Shown piece by piece: positions 1 through 4,841 of a stretch of DNA of 6,681 nt. The position numbers and the translations under genes were made by a program. The stretch spans positions 1-6,681 of the IMG/VR virus record IMGVR_UViG_3300005515_000473; one strand, given 5' to 3'. Numbering within the stretch: position 1 is the first letter of the stretch; each line of letters starts with the position of its first letter. Origin of the DNA: a virus. The notes beneath the pieces are model-generated. The model had not been told where the DNA came from and did not search any database. It saw only the letters and a program-made list of their open reading frames with translations.

Positions 1-120
1 TGGATTTCTTAGCTTGTTGCAGGCTCAAATGCACCAGGTACAAACAGCCGTTTAATCCATGCAGCCATTGCCCAGCGTAGGGCACGGCGGCGACGTCGCG
101 TATTTGACATAATATAGATT
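1..120. repeat. Terminal direct repeat, left copy (identical to 6562-6681); marks circular closure or a tandem junction of a 6561-nt unit
   Basis: Base-by-base comparison shows 1-120 equals 6562-6681 exactly. Both copies run up to the window edges, so this is an overlap rather than a bounded att repeat. Confidence 0.95.
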
Positions 121-491
121 CGTTCGGACTGCGGCTTCGAAGTAGGGCTGTAGGTACGGGCTTCCGCATTTTGCGGTGTCAAAAATCCAGTGACACCGAC
201 AGCCATAACTGCGCTAGCGGCCATCGCTGCCGTACGGCTCATAAAAACCGACCAGAGGGAGCTTTGTCCGGAGCGCTCGGCTCGATCTATGTCGGCGGCC
301 ATGATGACTTTGAGCGGGTCAATTTCGAGCGTTAGCGCAACTGCGAGGCACATCTCGTTTTCCATGATGCGTGCACCGCTCTTGTATTGACTAATGGCCG
401 CTTTCGTCACTCCGAAATGGTCGGCCAGCTCTTTGTCTGCATGAAGGCCAAGTTTGCTTTTGACCTGGTCGAGATATTGTGCGCTTTTCAT
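9..491 (-). CDS. Phage repressor, XRE/Cro-CI-type helix-turn-helix N-terminal domain; the C-terminal part has a hydrophobic segment and an Arg-run tail
   Basis: 160-aa ORF. The N-terminus DKELADHFGVTKAAISQYKSG (about nt 375-437) is a classic HTH_3-type motif. SD GAGG lies 6 nt upstream of the ATG (plus-strand CCTC 498-501). The ATG overlaps the upstream gene stop (ATGA). A minus-strand intrinsic terminator lies about 25 nt past the stop in circular coordinates. No S24 peptidase motifs are visible. Confidence 0.85.
   Translation of the reverse strand: MKSAQYLDQVKSKLGLHADKELADHFGVTKAAISQYKSGARIMENEMCLAVALTLEIDPLKVIMAADIDRAERSGQSSLWSVFMSRTAAMAASAVMAVGVTGFLTPQNAEARTYSPTSKPQSERIYIMSNTRRRRRALRWAMAAWIKRLFVPGAFEPATS
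102..129 (-). other. dif-like site (candidate attP for host XerCD): good XerD arm and central region, poor XerC arm
   Basis: The minus strand reads GTCCGAACGAA TCTATA TTATGTCAAAT. Against E. coli dif GGTGCGCATAA TGTATA TTATGTTAAAT, the central region plus XerD arm match 15/17, while the XerC arm matches only 3/11. No integrase is encoded. The core is duplicated at 6663-6679. Confidence 0.5.
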
Positions 492-847
492 TTTTGTCCT
501 CTTGTGAGGCGTTCCGTTTCTAATGGCCTGTTCGTCTGCTTTAGCCGTTGTAGCTCTTGTAATTGAGCTTTTTCCAATCGTAGCTTTTCTTCCGGCAGCG
601 ATTTCTTTTCCAGCTGTTGCCGCCTTAGTTCTTCAAGCTTCTTTTGCTGAAGCGCTTCAAGAGCTGGAGCAGGCTTTCTTACTTCAATGTCGGCTATCGC
701 GCCTCTAGTTGCAACGAAGGGTTGTTCGCACTCTTCGTTAGTCACAATCTTGCGTCCGTCTGGCGCTTGGCAAACATGTATTTCCGCGCGCGCGAGTGGT
801 GTGATTGTGGCAACAAATAGGAAAACCGCTATTTTTCCACTTGACAA
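488..847 (-). CDS. Secreted small protein: Sec signal peptide, Cys-containing DUF4124-like N-terminal motif, E/K/Q/L-rich coiled-coil C-terminus
   Basis: 119-aa ORF with a TTG start at 845-847, GGAG 6 nt upstream (plus CTCC 854-857) and an in-frame TAA just before it. The signal peptide MSSGKIAVFLFVATITPLARA has an A-X-A cleavage motif. IHVCQAPDGRKIVTNEECEQP resembles the DUF4124 pattern as I recall it. The C-terminal part shows heptad-like repeats. The TGA stop overlaps the repressor ATG. Confidence 0.7.
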   Translation of the reverse strand: MSSGKIAVFLFVATITPLARAEIHVCQAPDGRKIVTNEECEQPFVATRGAIADIEVRKPAPALEALQQKKLEELRRQQLEKKSLPEEKLRLEKAQLQELQRLKQTNRPLETERLTRGQK

Positions 848-869
848 TTAACGCTCCGTTAACTAAGGT
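841..869 (+). promoter_or_regulatory. Candidate sigma70 promoter for the plus-strand replication and structural operon
   Basis: TTGACA (841-846), a 17-bp spacer, then TAAGGT (864-869). It sits just upstream of the first plus-strand ORF, with a CGTTAACT motif in the spacer. Confidence 0.55.
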
Positions 870-900
870 TCACGCATCGTTAACTTAACACTGCGTGAAC
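868..900. promoter_or_regulatory. 33-bp near-perfect palindrome, candidate operator of the lysis/lysogeny switch
   Basis: The sequence is GTTCACGCA tc GTTAA c TTAAC ac TGCGTGAAC. Arms 868-876 and 892-900 are perfectly complementary, as are the inner arms 879-883 and 885-889. It lies between the -10 elements of both candidate promoters. Confidence 0.6.
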
Positions 901-1134
901 TGCATGAATCGTATTGGTTTACCGGCAACAGGTCAACAGGACTTTCTCTCCAATTGTCACAATGTGGCTCAGCGTGTACGCGCTCATGCCGCTGCCGGTA
1001 ACCGCGTGACCTGGTGGATGGACCAGGAGCGCGCCGAACTGCGTAAGGAGCCGGCCTGGCGCCAGGTGTTCGACCATTTGGCCGAGGCACATACCGGCGC
1101 GGCGGTTGCGGCCTTTCTCGGAGTTTCGAAGTGA
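895..1134 (+). CDS. Hypothetical 79-aa protein (76 aa if it starts at ATG 904), first gene of the plus-strand operon; possible early regulator
   Basis: It is the only sensible plus-strand ORF between the switch region and rep, and its amino-acid composition is balanced. Its TGA (1132-1134) overlaps the rep start (GTGATG), which implies coupling. No clear SD and no recognisable domain. Confidence 0.45.
   Translation: MNCMNRIGLPATGQQDFLSNCHNVAQRVRAHAAAGNRVTWWMDQERAELRKEPAWRQVFDHLAEAHTGAAVAAFLGVSK
908..936 (-). promoter_or_regulatory. Candidate sigma70 promoter for the minus-strand secreted-protein and repressor operon
   Basis: The minus strand reads TTGACC (plus 936-931), a 17-nt spacer, then TACGAT (plus 913-908). 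The predicted start near 900 would put the whole palindrome in the 5' leader. Confidence 0.45.
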
Positions 1135-2201
1135 TGGGCCAGAGCGGCGCAGCCGCCGCCCGAAGCCGAGCCCTGCGAGGCGAGGGGGGCGGCGTAGCCG
1201 CTTCACCCCGTACTGTAAAACGGGGTGAAAGTCCCAGCAGGACCGCTGACAGCGGCGTCATCGTTGACTGGCTCCGTTTTACCTTCCTACCTTCCGGGCC
1301 GATCTCTCATGCCCTGGAACAGTTGTCCCTCTATTTCAAGCTCTGGTTTCCGATCCAGGTGACGATGGTGCAGAGCAAGCGGGGCCTTCACGGCTATCAG
1401 GCGAGTCACGATGTGATGGCGCTGATCGATGGCGAGGCGGTGCGGCTGGCGATTGTGGCCTGTGGTGGCGATAACGTCGGCGGCACGATGTGTGTCGATC
1501 TGAGCGGTACAGGTTGTGCGGTGGTCGAAGACTGGCAAGCGGTCTATGCGACGTTGCAGGACCTCGATGCGCGAATCACCAGGTGCGATTTGGCGGTGGA
1601 CTTCCTGGATGGCCAGTACTCCCTGGAGCAAGTTGAGGACATGTATTTCGCCGGGCAGTTCAATGCTGGCGGTCGCATTCCGAAGTATTACCGGCACGAA
1701 GGAGGGGACTTGAATTCACGTGGCTGTTTGGGCAGGACGTTTGAAATTGGGCGTCGTGCCTCGGGCAAGCTGGTGCGGGCCTACGAGAAGGGCAAGCAGC
1801 TTGGTAACCAGGAGAGCAATTGGCTCCGGATCGAGATCGAGTTGCACAACAAGAATCGCGTCATTCCGCATGACGTGATCTTGAAGACTGCCGAATATTT
1901 CGCGGGGGCTCATAAGGCGCTGGAAGGCTTCATTGATGCGGCTTCCCGCAAGATTCCTACGCTGCAGAGGCAACATGAAGACGAGTTGACCCGAAGGGTG
2001 CGCCATATGCGCAACCAGTACGGCAAGACGCTCGATCAGGCCTGCAAGTTCTATGACGAAGATTTCGCCGCATTGATAGCTGATATCAGGGTGACGGGCA
2101 TCCCGGCATCGATGCATAAAACCGCCTTGGCAAGGCACGTGTACGGCCCTCACGACCCAGGGCCGAATGATGAAGGGGTATCACATGGAAATGCTGGCTA
2201 A
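1131..2201 (+). CDS. Rolling-circle replication initiation protein, Rep_trans (PF02486) / RstA-like family (inovirus gII equivalent)
   Basis: 356-aa ORF with family-typical motifs: VDWLRFTF, RCDLAVDF, VRAYEKGKQ (candidate catalytic Tyr) and WLRIEIEL. GGAG (1120-1123) lies 7 nt before GTG 1131 and 10 nt before ATG 1134. There is no alternative start between 1134 and the DWLRFTF motif. Confidence 0.9.
   Translation: MMGQSGAAAARSRALRGEGGGVAASPRTVKRGESPSRTADSGVIVDWLRFTFLPSGPISHALEQLSLYFKLWFPIQVTMVQSKRGLHGYQASHDVMALIDGEAVRLAIVACGGDNVGGTMCVDLSGTGCAVVEDWQAVYATLQDLDARITRCDLAVDFLDGQYSLEQVEDMYFAGQFNAGGRIPKYYRHEGGDLNSRGCLGRTFEIGRRASGKLVRAYEKGKQLGNQESNWLRIEIELHNKNRVIPHDVILKTAEYFAGAHKALEGFIDAASRKIPTLQRQHEDELTRRVRHMRNQYGKTLDQACKFYDEDFAALIADIRVTGIPASMHKTALARHVYGPHDPGPNDEGVSHGNAG
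1202..1229 (+). other. Perfect 10-bp GC-rich hairpin inside the rep 5' coding region
   Basis: TTCACCCCGT (1202-1211) pairs with ACGGGGTGAA (1220-1229) around the 8-nt loop ACTGTAAA. A second small hairpin, CCGCT gac AGCGG, follows at 1243-1255. Confidence 0.6.
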
Positions 2202-2496
2202 GGTCACTATTCGCGGCGCTAAGCTGTTTCGCGGCAATCTCGATGGCAAGGACATCGACAGCGGCAAGATCTTCACGGATGTGGAGTTGAGCGGGGAAAA
2301 CTCTTGGGGCGTCTGCACCCAGGAGATGAAGTGCGAAGGCTCGAAGCTGATCGATGGCATCAAGCACAACAGCTTCCCCTTCATCGCGGAGATCGGCGTC
2401 GTTCAGAAGAGTACTGGTAGCAAGACGTCGATGGTTGTTACGAGCATTAAGCCGCTGCAGCGCGAAGCTGGTAAGCAGGCTCCGGCGGCTGCTTAA
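2185..2496 (+). CDS. Candidate ssDNA-binding protein (gV equivalent)
   Basis: About 103 aa, immediately after rep and overlapping its end, as in other inoviruses. SD GAAGGGG (2172-2178) lies 6 nt before ATG 2185. The call rests on position and size only; ATG 2167 and 2191 are alternative starts. Confidence 0.5.
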   Translation: MEMLAKVTIRGAKLFRGNLDGKDIDSGKIFTDVELSGENSWGVCTQEMKCEGSKLIDGIKHNSFPFIAEIGVVQKSTGSKTSMVVTSIKPLQREAGKQAPAAA

Positions 2497-2498
2497 AC

Positions 2499-2753
2499 AT
2501 GGGGGTCTGTGCGAAGGTGGTGCGGCAGGATGATGGCACGTTACTGCTTGCGCTTGACCCCTCTGTGACGGATATCTCCACGTGCGCCTACGTGGTTGAT
2601 TCGGGTGCGAGTAATGCTTGGCGCGAGCTGGGCAATATGAGCATTCGGGATGCCGAAGTGATTAGCCTGAACGTTGGTTGGGTTTGGGCGGTCGCTTGGG
2701 GATGGAAGGCGATTTCGAGAGCAATCTCTATCAAACATGAAGACAAGGAGTAA
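2499..2753 (+). CDS. Small protein with a Trp-rich C-terminal hydrophobic segment; candidate minor virion or morphogenesis protein
   Basis: 84-aa ORF packed between the ssDNA-binding candidate (stop 2494-2496) and the coat gene. The segment VISLNVGWVWAVAWGWKAI looks like a membrane anchor. No family recognised. Confidence 0.5.
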   Translation: MGVCAKVVRQDDGTLLLALDPSVTDISTCAYVVDSGASNAWRELGNMSIRDAEVISLNVGWVWAVAWGWKAISRAISIKHEDKE

Positions 2754-2755
2754 CC

Positions 2756-2965
2756 ATGGATAAGTTTCTGAAGCGTGTTGCAGGTGTGGCGGTTGCTGGT
2801 GCGGCTGCTGCATCCACTTCCGCTTACGCGGCTGACGGGATCGACACCACGACCATTATTGCTGCCATCACCGCTGCCGGTGCTGCTGCTGTGGTGGTCG
2901 GTGCTGCATACACCGGTGTGGTCGCAAGCATCAAGGCGTTCAAGCTGATTCGTTCCGCGATGTAA
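2756..2965 (+). CDS. Major coat protein (g8p equivalent) precursor
   Basis: 69 aa. The signal peptide MDKFLKRVAGVAVAGAAAASTSAYA ends in an A-X-A site. The mature 44-aa peptide has an acidic N-terminus (ADGID), an Ala/Gly/Val hydrophobic core and a basic C-terminus (KAFKLIRSAM), similar to my recollection of the Xf coat ending KWVRRAM. Strong SD AAGGAG (2745-2750) lies 5 nt before the ATG, and a terminator follows. Confidence 0.9.
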   Translation: MDKFLKRVAGVAVAGAAAASTSAYAADGIDTTTIIAAITAAGAAAVVVGAAYTGVVASIKAFKLIRSAM

Positions 2966-2986
2966 GGGCTAGCGCTTTGACGTTCT

Positions 2987-3013
2987 AAGGGGCGCTTTTG
3001 CGCTCCTTTTTTT
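2987..3013 (+). terminator. Rho-independent terminator after the major coat gene
   Basis: AAGGGGCGC (2987-2995), loop TTTT, then GCGCTCCTT (3000-3008) give a 9-bp stem with one G-U pair, running into a T7 tract (3007-3013). A terminator after g8 is the classic Ff arrangement. Confidence 0.8.
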
Positions 3014-3090
3014 ATGGAGTGAGGTATGGGGCTTATTGTGCTGGTGACCTACTTGGGCGTGTGGTGGATTCTCTTTTCGGACTGATCGTG

Positions 3091-4533
3091 ATGCGGAAAT
3101 TATTTATATCGTTTTTGCTGCTGTTCGTTGCCGGGGCGGCGTCGGCTGAGACTGTCTGGTATCACTACAACTTCCCGAACGATACCTTTTCTTCTTCGCC
3201 GTCGGCATCGTGCGCATTAGGTATTGCGAAGATGTCCGGCAAGACGTCGACCGGCGCGTCTCAGGCTGCGAATGGTAGCTATGACTGTAATTGTTCTTGG
3301 AAGGCTTATCCGGGCGCTCCTGACACGTTTGGTTCCTGTGGTCAGGCGACGTCTACGACAAAGGCAAGTTGCGCTGTTGGTGATGAGCGGAAGCCTGATG
3401 GGTCTTGTGGCCCTCCGCCGCCAAAGCCTTGTAACACTCCCGCAGGCCAGCCTGTTAGCTGGGCGGGTTATGTGGGTCATTCGGCTAGTTCCAGCGCCAA
3501 TATGCCGGATGGCGGCGGTAGCGGTTTGCCGGGTCAATCTGATTCGTGCGGGATTGCGGGTGGCACGCCGGATAGTGTTGGTAAGTGCTATGCCACTCCG
3601 GCTGCTGGTGGTGGTCAGGACTTCTGGTGCAACTACACCGGTACATCCAATGGTCAGCAAGCTACTCCGTCAAGCGGCACGCCTAAGCCTCCTGGTGATG
3701 GAACTCCTTCCAAGCCTACAGGTATGCCTCCGTCGAAGGCTGGCCCCTCTGGCGGTTGTCCTGCTGGAACGACTCAAGGGGGCGTATCGCCTGACGGTAT
3801 GGCGGTGTGTGTCGGTTCTGGAACGAATCCGACGGGCGCTAATGGTGGGGCGGCTGGTGATGCGAATCCTACGACTTCCACTACTACTAAGTCGGTCGAT
3901 GCTAATGGTAATCCGGTCGAGACAACGAGAGAGACTCGCCCGAATGGTGATGGGTCTACTACGACTAAGACGACTGAGAAGACAACTAATCCGGATGGCA
4001 GCACTTCGACTACTACTAAGACGGTTACCGGTTTAGATCCGAATGGAAAGCAGGGCCAGCCTGACAAGCCTGATACCGATTTTTGTCGCCTTCATCCTGA
4101 GCTGAACATGTGTCGCAATTCGTCTATTTCCGGCCAGTGCGGGCAGATTAGCTGCATGGGTGATGCAATCCAGTGCGCGACCTTGCGCGAAGCTGCGACG
4201 ATTCAGTGTCGTCAGAAAGAGGCTGAGGATGCAATTAAAGCTAGTCCTCAGTACACGTTGGGTAACGCTGCTGGCAATGGTAATGATCCTGAAAAGGGAA
4301 GCTTGCCAGCACCTGGAAACGGCACGACTGTTGATGTTTCGGCGCTTAGTGCTGATGGCTGGTTGGGCGGTGGCGCACCCATTGAAGATGTGTCTGTGGA
4401 GTTTCAGGGTCAGTCGATTGTGATCCCCTTTTCTAAGGCTGCTAGTGCATTGATCGTGTTGCGGTACGCATTGATGGTGGCGGCTTCTCTTATTTCCTTC
4501 CGCATCCTGTCGGGTGCAGTTCTTGGGAGCTAA
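3091..4533 (+). CDS. Minor coat / adsorption protein (g3p equivalent)
   Basis: 480 aa from ATG 3091. It has the signal peptide MRKLFISFLLLFVAGAASA, a Cys-rich N-terminal region, Pro/Gly/Ser and Thr-rich linkers (PPPPKP; TPKPPGDGTPSKPTGMPPSK; STTTKT-type repeats), a Cys-rich C-terminal domain and a C-terminal membrane anchor (ALIVLRYALMVAASLISFRIL). It sits between the coat gene and the g6-like gene. Confidence 0.8.
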   Translation: MRKLFISFLLLFVAGAASAETVWYHYNFPNDTFSSSPSASCALGIAKMSGKTSTGASQAANGSYDCNCSWKAYPGAPDTFGSCGQATSTTKASCAVGDERKPDGSCGPPPPKPCNTPAGQPVSWAGYVGHSASSSANMPDGGGSGLPGQSDSCGIAGGTPDSVGKCYATPAAGGGQDFWCNYTGTSNGQQATPSSGTPKPPGDGTPSKPTGMPPSKAGPSGGCPAGTTQGGVSPDGMAVCVGSGTNPTGANGGAAGDANPTTSTTTKSVDANGNPVETTRETRPNGDGSTTTKTTEKTTNPDGSTSTTTKTVTGLDPNGKQGQPDKPDTDFCRLHPELNMCRNSSISGQCGQISCMGDAIQCATLREAATIQCRQKEAEDAIKASPQYTLGNAAGNGNDPEKGSLPAPGNGTTVDVSALSADGWLGGGAPIEDVSVEFQGQSIVIPFSKAASALIVLRYALMVAASLISFRILSGAVLGS

Positions 4534-4536
4534 ATC

Positions 4537-4839
4537 ATGCCTTTGCTCTATGCGCTTGGCGGTTTGTTGTTGCGGTTGACCGGGCCGCTGGTTGGTCGTG
4601 TGTTGCTTGCACTTGGTCTTACCTTTGTGACGTTTAAAGGTGTGAATGCCGGTATTGACTGGTTGCTCGTTCAGATCAAGTCGAATATGAGTGCGATGCC
4701 AGCCCAGGCATTGCAGCTTCTGGGTTATCTGTGGGTCGATAAGGCCATAAGTATGATGTTCTCTGCCTATGCGGCGGCTTCGGTCATCAAGATGGCTGGC
4801 AGTGCGACGTTTACGCGGCTTGTGACTAAGGGGGCGTAG
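4537..4839 (+). CDS. Minor coat membrane protein (g6p equivalent; DUF2523-like)
   Basis: 100 aa, strongly hydrophobic with several predicted helices. SD GGGAG (4525-4529) lies 7 nt before the ATG. Its position between g3-like and zot-like genes is typical of Xanthomonas/Ralstonia-type inoviruses. Confidence 0.7.
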   Translation: MPLLYALGGLLLRLTGPLVGRVLLALGLTFVTFKGVNAGIDWLLVQIKSNMSAMPAQALQLLGYLWVDKAISMMFSAYAAASVIKMAGSATFTRLVTKGA

Positions 4840-4841
4840 GC

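Follow-up and report, generated by a model that had tools for sequence, protein, structure and literature searches.

In the Ralstonia phage phiRSS0, a 19-nt repeat that corresponds to the dif site of R. solanacearum is located at the 3' end of the repressor-like gene ORF13 and, as determined by inverse PCR, flanks the prophage as the attachment sites attL and attR; integration via the recombinases XerC and XerD of the host (XerCD) shortens ORF13 from 156 to 130 amino acids (aa) (PMC3816273). In TLC-phi, one pair of sites serves both integration and excision (PMC9226527), and in VGJ-phi and CTX-phi the XerC-only exchange needs homology solely on the XerC side (PMC5357621). Here, we describe a dif-like site in the virus record IMGVR_UViG_3300005515_000473, of which the whole stretch of 6,681 nt, hereafter called the window, was analyzed. 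The window consists of a 6561-nt inovirus genome with a perfect 120-nt direct terminal repeat. A first-pass annotation made from the sequence alone had placed a dif-like XerD arm and central region inside a repressor gene at positions 102-129 (minus strand), and had proposed integration by host XerCD, the lifestyle of integrative mobile elements exploiting Xer recombination (IMEXs). Our results indicate that this site is very probably the attP of a filamentous phage that lysogenizes a Duganella-like host of the Oxalobacteraceae at the chromosomal dif via XerC and XerD of the host. A module with a dif-like attP in the repressor gene has already been published for RSS0-type phages, and is here found in a new host family.

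On the plus strand, the site reads ATTTGACATAA TATAGA TTCGTTCGGAC, and its reverse complement is GTCCGAACGAA TCTATA TTATGTCAAAT (Table 1). The dif site of E. coli is GGTGCGCATAA TGTATA TTATGTTAAAT. The arm structure described previously (PMC9226527) agrees with the E. coli sequence used here. The XerD arm matches E. coli dif at 10 of 11 positions and the central region at 5 of 6 (together 15/17), while the XerC arm matches at 3 of 11, which are the counts given in the first-pass annotation. With up to two mismatches allowed, the 17-mer of XerD arm and central region was identified in the window only at 102-118 and in the terminal-repeat copy at 6663-6679, and it had no match in 200 dinucleotide-preserving shuffles. 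There is one dif-like site per genome copy and no inverted partner. Alternative XerC arms were sought at spacings of 4-10 bp; the best candidate, with 6/11 at 7 bp, was rejected, as it is restricted to the window, not significant and not conserved in the relatives. Translation confirmed that the site occupies codons 121-130 (QSERIYIMSN) of the 160-aa repressor open reading frame (ORF). Domains of integrases, recombinases or transposases were not found in any substantial ORF by Pfam and PHROG scans, and the remaining coding capacity is accounted for. As no recombinase is encoded, the explanation with the best support is that the phage would use host XerCD and live as an IMEX.

Exact copies of the pVI-like protein were identified on 22 contigs, of which 10 were fetched, all of them public metagenome contigs and each from a different sample. 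The whole phage is integrated in seven of these (L003-L009), with 100% identity over window positions 102-6681 (99.985% in L006), and the other three (L010-L012) are right-end fragments that run into attR. Window positions 1-101 are unmatched at the left end in all 10 contigs. At the left junction, host sequence ending in gtgattatgac is followed by ATTTGACATAATATAGATT and then by phage sequence starting with cgttcggac; at the right junction, phage sequence ending in gacgtcgcgt is followed by the same 19 nt and then by host sequence starting with atgcgaagtt. The attB site rebuilt by joining the host flanks is ACTTCGCATAA TCTATA TTATGTCAAAT, which matches E. coli dif at 23 of 28 positions, and attP is identical to this rebuilt host dif over 19/19 positions, comprising the XerD arm (11/11), the central region and 2 nt. 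The first-pass annotation had anticipated a host dif that shares the XerD arm and central region, as well as prophage junctions within 113-118. Both expectations were borne out: the 28-nt attB occurs exactly once per genome in 28 species, nearly all of which belong to Massilia, Pseudoduganella, Duganella or Herbaspirillum (Oxalobacteraceae), and the junctions fall in 102-120, an interval that includes 113-118.

Matching empty sites were also recovered. One of the 28 genomes, an uncultured Duganella metagenome-assembled genome (MAG; L029), contains both flanks of the prophage contigs at 96-97% identity with the site empty. Two JGI metagenome contigs (L044, L045), found with a 43-nt pattern of attB plus flank, share 98.7-99.6% identity with either flank over 2.5-5.6 kb, and the overlap between the flanks is exactly the 19-nt core. 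The population is thus polymorphic for the prophage, and the conversion of attP and attB to attL and attR is documented to the base. The attL 28-mer is the same as the attP 28-mer, and the attR 28-mer the same as the attB 28-mer. As the core is identical in all four sites, the crossover must fall inside it. The host is a Duganella-like member of the Oxalobacteraceae from soil or water.

A mechanism consistent with these junctions would start from a double-stranded circular form of the phage, which would pair its XerD arm and 6-bp central region with the identical host dif, upon which XerC and XerD of the host would make a full crossover inside the core. The product attL would then combine the host XerD arm and central region with the pseudo-XerC arm of the phage, and the product attR would be a perfect regenerated dif, such that the host would keep a working dif that is open to further insertions. 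Since attL equals attP and attR equals attB, integration and excision represent the same reaction between the same two sites. The 6/6 identity of the central region in every lineage argues for a complete two-strand crossover and against the XerC-only exchange of VGJ-phi and CTX-phi. XerC would probably be recruited to the 2/11 arm through cooperativity with XerD on the perfect arm, possibly together with a phage factor, and the order of strand exchange is likewise a presumed part of the scheme. By analogy with difGGI of the gonococcal genetic island, the weak XerC arm may stabilize the prophage against excision driven by FtsK.

Several points weigh against integration of a free phage by XerCD as outlined above. 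The presumed dependence on XerC and XerD is derived only from the site identity and the junction structure. With an XerC arm of 2/11, a canonical complex of XerCD with attP would be impossible without cooperativity or a helper, and the activator XafT (DUF3653) was not found in the phage, neither in the scanned ORFs nor by profile comparison. Furthermore, the attP junction and the 160-aa form of the repressor are attested by the window only. The phage-to-phage junction, in which positions 1-101 are joined to 102-129, reads GACGTCGCGT, core, CGTTCGGAC; a 36-mer across it is absent from IMG/VR and from the JGI metagenome contigs, and an exact look-up of the 160-aa repressor gave nothing on record. 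The free circular form therefore rests on the window, which could be a prophage circularized in silico. The right end of the window is the last base common to the phage and the host dif (120/121), which is the right boundary of the prophage (attR). The terminal repeat may stem from a cycle contig that was broken at a branch of the assembly graph, phage-to-phage vs phage-to-host, in which case the 120-nt overlap would suit k = 121, or from a prophage-delimited record (121-6681, 6561 nt) that was wrapped in silico. Finally, the GC skew of the 0.2-10 kb flanks, which is higher to the left than to the right of the site in 10/10 loci, is small in size and only weakly consistent with a replication terminus.

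We compared the locus to the RSS-type phages, which it resembles most closely. The first-pass annotation had pointed to a similar attP within ORF13 of RSS0, which is correct (PMC3816273). The helix-turn-helix (HTH) repressor is homologous to RSS0 ORF13, with 52% identity over residues 1-83 (tblastn, E 5e-21) and 44% over 144 residues (blastp, E 3e-37), and to the repressor of RSS20, with 45% identity over residues 1-127 (tblastn). The attP site has the same location within the gene's 3' end, where RSS0 has TTTATC TTATGTAAAAT, the 19-nt core comprises 1-2 nt in addition to the XerD arm and central region, and the XerC-side arm is not dif-like. Integration at dif truncates the ORF in both systems (from 156 to 130 aa there and from 160 to 135 aa here), and a poly-T hairpin terminator follows the full-length stop. 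In RSS20, RS611, RSS30 and others, a homologue of the 93-aa gene of the window is also located just upstream of attP. The phage nevertheless represents another lineage, with DNA that is only 72-75% similar to RSS0/RSS20 over about 770 nt in two short segments, and it falls outside the species and the genus of RSS0/RSS1 (Restivirus). The whole window had no megablast match among 50,697 phage records, and the nearest relatives at the protein level are Ralstonia inoviruses, with 36-38% identity for the best Ralstonia Zot matches and less than 60% for Zot against every phage record. The host is Ralstonia there and Duganella/Oxalobacteraceae here, the core follows the dif of the new host (TATAGA central region, TTATGTCAAAT arm), and the repressor ORF reads the core in another frame. 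Another Ralstonia phage, phiRs551, was discarded as not relevant, since it belongs to the RSM type, encodes a serine recombinase and has its attP in a tRNA.

The TLC-phi of Vibrio cholerae (PMC6744903, PMC9226527) is similar in that only one arm of attP is canonical and the other degenerate, while the central region is fully homologous to dif, and in that the prophage is flanked by an attP-identical site and a true dif, which implies a full double-strand crossover. The two sites are however mirror images, since the XerD arm is perfect (11/11) and the XerC arm degenerate (2/11) here, whereas TLC-phi has a canonical XerC and a degenerate XerD arm. In addition, XafT (DUF3653) was not found here, and TLC-phi is a satellite, as compared to the complete inovirus in the window. 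The PM2-like phages that integrate at dif (PMC12715192) have a "left-armed" 17-bp attP in which nothing but the XerD arm and central region is present (ATTTAACATAATATAAA in PM2, ATTTGACATAATATAGA here), and in these too a repressor and a small regulator flank attP and become the prophage termini. The small flanking protein in PM2 (gp a) contains DUF3653 and is unrelated to the 93-aa protein, and attP is located between P15 and P16, inside the small ORF b, rather than in the repressor gene. In the PM2 sequence (L050, 663-773), the published 17-bp attP (747-763) lies inside the annotated small ORFs b and b*, which is another case of an attP within an ORF.

Like difGGI and the VGJ-phi-type IMEXs (PMC5357621), the phage would use Xer at dif through a single double-stranded dif-like site. 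In difGGI, it is the XerC arm that is good and the XerD arm that diverges, and this site is again the mirror image of the one here. In VGJ-phi, both arms are present and the central region is homologous on the XerC side only, so that only XerC exchanges strands; here, the XerC arm matches at 2/11 at the 6-bp spacing and the central region at 6/6. The CTX-phi type requires two inverted dif-like sites, as compared to the single site in the window. The locus has the features of an IMEX, with a dif-like attachment site, copies integrated at dif of the host that have hybrid junctions and leave one dif regenerated, and no integrase or recombinase found.

The same module was identified in other lineages. 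In a 7630-nt prophage of Massilia sp. NR 4-1 (L041), attL lies in the 3' end of the repressor gene and the core ATTTTACATAA TATAAA is present at both ends; the core is the same in a 10,120-nt prophage of Undibacterium sp. YM2 (L042), which encodes a Phage_CRI replication protein. Repressors that are 73% and 50% identical to that of the window are encoded on a JGI contig (L047) and in a Burkholderiaceae MAG (L048), respectively, both with attL at the same alignment position, and the central region in the latter is TACAAA. In RSS20, the central region is GATAAA, and RSS0 has the same XerD arm as RSS20. Overall, in at least five independent phage-host pairs, attL and attR have the XerD arm and central region in common and these follow the dif of the host, and the XerC-side arm of the phage is never dif-like (2-5/11). 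Depending on the lineage, the repressor ORF passes through the core in any of the three frames (IYIMSN, LYYVKS, FILCKI), and it is the DNA site, not the peptide, that is the conserved entity.

A single base difference in L047 provides further resolution. The XerD arms of attL (3474-3501) and attR (10322-10349) differ at one base (T vs G). In attL, the host-derived arm TTATGTAAAAT supplies a TAA stop, and the repressor ends with ...LYIM at 128 aa; the phage-derived arm in attR has a C at the position of this stop base. According to this difference, the exchange took place on the side of that base which faces the central region, as predicted from the Xer cleavage positions, and it follows that integration replaced the XerD arm of the host dif by the phage version.

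Additional loci contain fragments of related elements at dif. In Massilia sp. Root351 (L024, 6560-6872), a decayed right-end remnant of about 310 nt at the chromosomal dif corresponds to the 93-aa gene, frameshifted at an A-run, and the terminator. In Duganella sp. Root336D2 (L035, 343-397), a decayed right-end remnant of about 55 nt abuts dif. We take both remnants as marks of an earlier occupation by IMEXs. To the left of attL in L042, positions 1-184 encode a repressor tail that is very similar to the episomal tail of the phage itself, which suggests that an older related element or remnant adjoins the prophage, implying a tandem array of IMEXs at dif. In Undibacterium sp. Di26W (L043, 10001-10365), a homologue of the 93-aa protein with an altered C-terminus abuts dif in the opposite orientation (XerC arm first), preceded upstream by genes for a secretin and a ParE/PaaA2 toxin-antitoxin pair and followed downstream by a Mu-like prophage, and this locus is probably a rearranged array. 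Just past dif in two unrelated genomes (L041, 10399-11565; L047, 10349-11524), there is a gene for a tyrosine recombinase (Phage_integrase) of about 390 aa, which may be part of another integrated element or a conserved dif-adjacent gene.

The 93-aa Cys-rich protein encoded next to attP has the pattern MQLELFPFD...KKRLxLAGVSKREILDxLACCRLxC...PC..C, with CCRLKC in the window. A total of 73 homologues were identified in the databases, with 54-99% identity and 18 invariant residues that include the Cys cluster. The stop codon of the gene is located 0-30 nt from the XerD arm of dif in 7/7 co-oriented loci (window, L041, L042, L046-L049), and this linkage to attP spans prophages with three different replication proteins (Rep_trans, Phage_CRI and REP_ORF2-G2P). 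The seven loci include a solo copy (L046) and a remnant disrupted by Tn3 (L049), and a further decayed copy was found beside dif in L024. In RSS20, RS611, RSS30, RSBg and RSS-TH1, homologues without annotation (45-52% identity) are present at the same position. No Pfam domain was identified in the protein and DUF3653 was not identified among 43 family members (hmmscan), nor did any of the scanned window ORFs (40 aa or longer) match DUF3653. A sequence search against PDB returned nothing significant. The AlphaFold model (predicted local distance difference test score, pLDDT, 87) consists of three helices and a Cys knuckle, and a Foldseek search with the model gave no fold match in PDB or BFVD. 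A relationship to XafT was rejected at the homology level, with a probability of 0.3% in an hhalign comparison to the PM2 DUF3653 protein P15.

It is possible, although on balance doubtful, that the Xer-dependent integration needs a phage accessory factor that recruits or activates XerC/XerD on an attP without an XerC arm, with the 93-aa protein as the candidate, which would refine rather than replace the integration scheme above. The protein would then be a functional analogue of XafT from an unrelated family. The conservation of the gene and its invariant residues, its distance to the XerD arm irrespective of the replication protein, its persistence as a solo gene or remnant (L046, L024) and its position in the RSS phages are consistent with such a function, as is the fact that it occupies the terminal slot held by XafT/P15 in the Vibrio CTX-I and double jelly-roll (DJR) lysogeny modules. 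The protein however has no similarity to DUF3653/XafT and no fold match despite a confident model, the linkage to attP may be purely positional, and the protein could equally be a regulator or an antirepressor. In the Xanthomonas phage phiLf-UK, the DUF3653 protein acts in packaging and is dispensable for integration (bioRxiv 10.1101/2024.03.19.585677), which makes position alone weak evidence for the function of the 93-aa protein. A wider and more speculative suggestion is that the Burkholderiales inoviruses (Ralstonia RSS-type, Duganella, Massilia, Undibacterium) share an unrecognized three-part module for hijacking Xer, made up of an ORF13-type repressor, an attP of XerD arm and central region only, and a 93-aa Cys4 protein unrelated to DUF3653. 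The latter would, rather tentatively, be a new Xer accessory or activation factor that might enable recombination without an XerC arm, as the mirror image of TLC-phi and XafT.

The repressor is predicted to be an HTH protein of the CI type (phrog_638, E=4.5e-30), with Pfam Phage_CI_repr and HTH_3 just under the cutoff. The first-pass annotation had also predicted that integration would replace the Arg-rich C-terminal tail of this protein, separate the gene from its terminator and thereby yield different repressor forms in prophage and episome. On the integrated contigs, the gene is indeed called as 135 aa ending with ...IYIMSNVIITV, so that the two forms differ in length (135 vs 160 aa, the latter from the window only). 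Residues 1-130 are kept, followed by VIITV and a stop in place of the 30-aa tail TRRRRRALRWAMAAWIKRLFVPGAFEPATS. The location of attP in codons 121-130 thus means that integration exchanges codons 131-160 (window 9-101) for 5 host-encoded codons and uncouples the gene from its terminator. The terminator-like hairpin past the 160-aa stop is the strongest such structure in the window and is also present in RSS20 and L024; after integration, it is located about 6.5 kb from the repressor gene, and no terminator-like structure was found in the host flank 3' of the truncated ORF. The hairpin lies inside the conserved KKRLxLAGVS coding segment of the 93-aa gene, with the same layout in RSS20 (L002, 6560-6640). 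The two genes converge with an antisense overlap of 72 nt (9-80/6570-6641), in which the last 24 codons of the repressor are opposite to the Cys-rich C-terminus of the 93-aa protein.

Whether the 160-aa episomal and the 135-aa prophage repressors are functionally distinct isoforms with different targets, as in Yamada's Hypothesis 1 for RSS0, is a question to which we would, with some reservation, answer in the negative. The ORF reads through attP in every lineage examined and in all three frames relative to the core, the truncation upon integration is documented for RSS0 too (PMC3816273), and the loss of the terminator could alter expression. On the other hand, the prophage-state tails past the core are 0, 2, 5, 29 and 31 aa long, unrelated, and derived from the host or a neighbour, the PHROG repressor profile stops near residue 135, and the DNA for the episomal tail is antisense to the segment of the 93-aa gene in which the strongly conserved, Cys-rich C-terminus is encoded. 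The reconstructed episomal tails of the Massilia and Undibacterium relatives resemble that of the window and all end with ...ATS, but the antisense constraint of the conserved 93-aa gene explains this likeness by itself. Comparing the tails across lineages, we found no evidence of selection on the tail for a function of its own, and the tail may be incidental. Around residues 86-106, the repressor contains a hydrophobic stretch TAAMAASAVMAVGVTGFLTP followed by xAEA, which is kept in all homologues including RSS0 ORF13 and resembles a transmembrane or signal-like segment, which HTH repressors do not usually have. A pattern-based search for relatives of the repressor in IMG/VR gave none that were confirmed.

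It is very unlikely that general homologous recombination or the HUH replication protein of the phage, instead of XerCD, makes use of the 19-nt identity. The identity that such a reaction would exploit is present and the evidence for Xer is drawn here from sequence. RecA works efficiently only on substrates that are far longer than 19 nt. In the lineage of the window, the identity covers the XerD arm and central region plus 2 nt and ends there (102-120), the tracking of the host dif in the independent phage-host pairs and the arm polymorphism in L047 fit Xer, and the nick site of Rep_trans would be expected at the origin and not in the repressor gene. The least likely alternative is a CTX-phi-type reaction, in which two inverted dif-like sites would form a forked hairpin in the single-stranded genome, a form that is available since the phage is an inovirus replicating by rolling circle (Rep_trans), and XerC would irreversibly swap one strand pair; the single dif-like site excludes such a folded attP, the identities of attL with attP and of attR with attB are what a double-strand crossover of two simple sites characteristically leaves behind, and all 6 bp of the central region are identical to dif.

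To specialists on Xer and IMEXs, integration at dif by this phage will be expected rather than surprising, and possibly only the conserved 93-aa neighbour gene is a new element. The results extend the RSS0-type arrangement from Ralstonia to environmental Oxalobacteraceae, and provide attP, attB, attL and attR to the exact base for an uncultured phage-host pair, so that the host is assigned from sequence alone. They also show that an attP of XerD arm and central region only recurs in at least five lineages, following the dif of each host, and flag a conserved and unannotated small gene beside such sites, including in published RSS phage genomes. If it were true that this gene aids XerCD without an XerC arm, it would represent a second, unrelated class of Xer activation factor.

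Table 1. Coordinates of the attachment site, the flanking genes and other features in the 6,681-nt window.
Feature	Position	Strand	Remark
attP, 28-nt dif-like site	102..129	-	identical to attL 28-mer of integrated contigs
XerD arm TTATGTCAAAT	102-112	-	
Central region TCTATA	113-118	-	
Degenerate XerC-side arm GTCCGAACGAA	119-129	-	2/11 vs host XerC arm
19-nt core ATTTGACATAATATAGATT	102..120	.	XerD arm, central region and 2 nt; identical in attP, attB, attL and attR
Second core copy	6663..6681	.	right end of window
ORF13-type HTH repressor	9..491	-	160 aa in attP form
Intrinsic-terminator-like hairpin, 11-bp stem and T8	6521..6547	-	about 22 nt 3' of 160-aa stop, inside 93-aa gene
93-aa Cys-rich protein gene	6360..6641	+	stop 21 nt before XerD arm; right-terminal gene of prophage, next to regenerated dif
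120-nt direct terminal repeat	1..120 = 6562-6681	n/a	marks circular or circularized 6561-nt genome
119-aa ORF	488-847	-	4-nt overlap with repressor start
Inovirus core genes	1131..6050	+	Pfam and PHROG; filamentous phage without integrase
Rep_trans rolling-circle initiator	1131-2201	+	
Small phrog_4994 protein, ssDNA-binding-like	2167-2496	+	
Inovirus Coat_B major coat protein	2756-2965	+	
pIII-like protein, 480 aa	3091-4533	+	
DUF2523 (pVI-like) protein	4537-4839	+	
Zot-type assembly ATPase	4842-6050	+	

Some minor features were noted in the rest of the phage genome. The 119-aa ORF has a signal-peptide-like N-terminus and a charged C-terminus that resembles a coiled coil, is called as a gene in only some contigs and has no match to a Pfam or PHROG family; given the short overlap, it is probably co-transcribed with the repressor gene. 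The repressor and Rep operons are separated by a divergent promoter region. At 868-900 in this region, there is an almost perfect palindrome (GTTCACGCATCGTTAA/TTAACACTGCGTGAAC, 16-nt arms with a 1-nt spacer), near which GTTAAC motifs recur and which represents a candidate operator. Short imperfect direct repeats at 3693-4025 in the pIII-like gene encode Thr-rich linkers (TTTK and GDG motifs). The segment of about 300 nt located 3' of zot (6051-6359) is non-coding and contains the palindrome TTTACGTGACGTCACATTAA (e.g., 6177-6196), which makes it a candidate for the origin or packaging-signal region.

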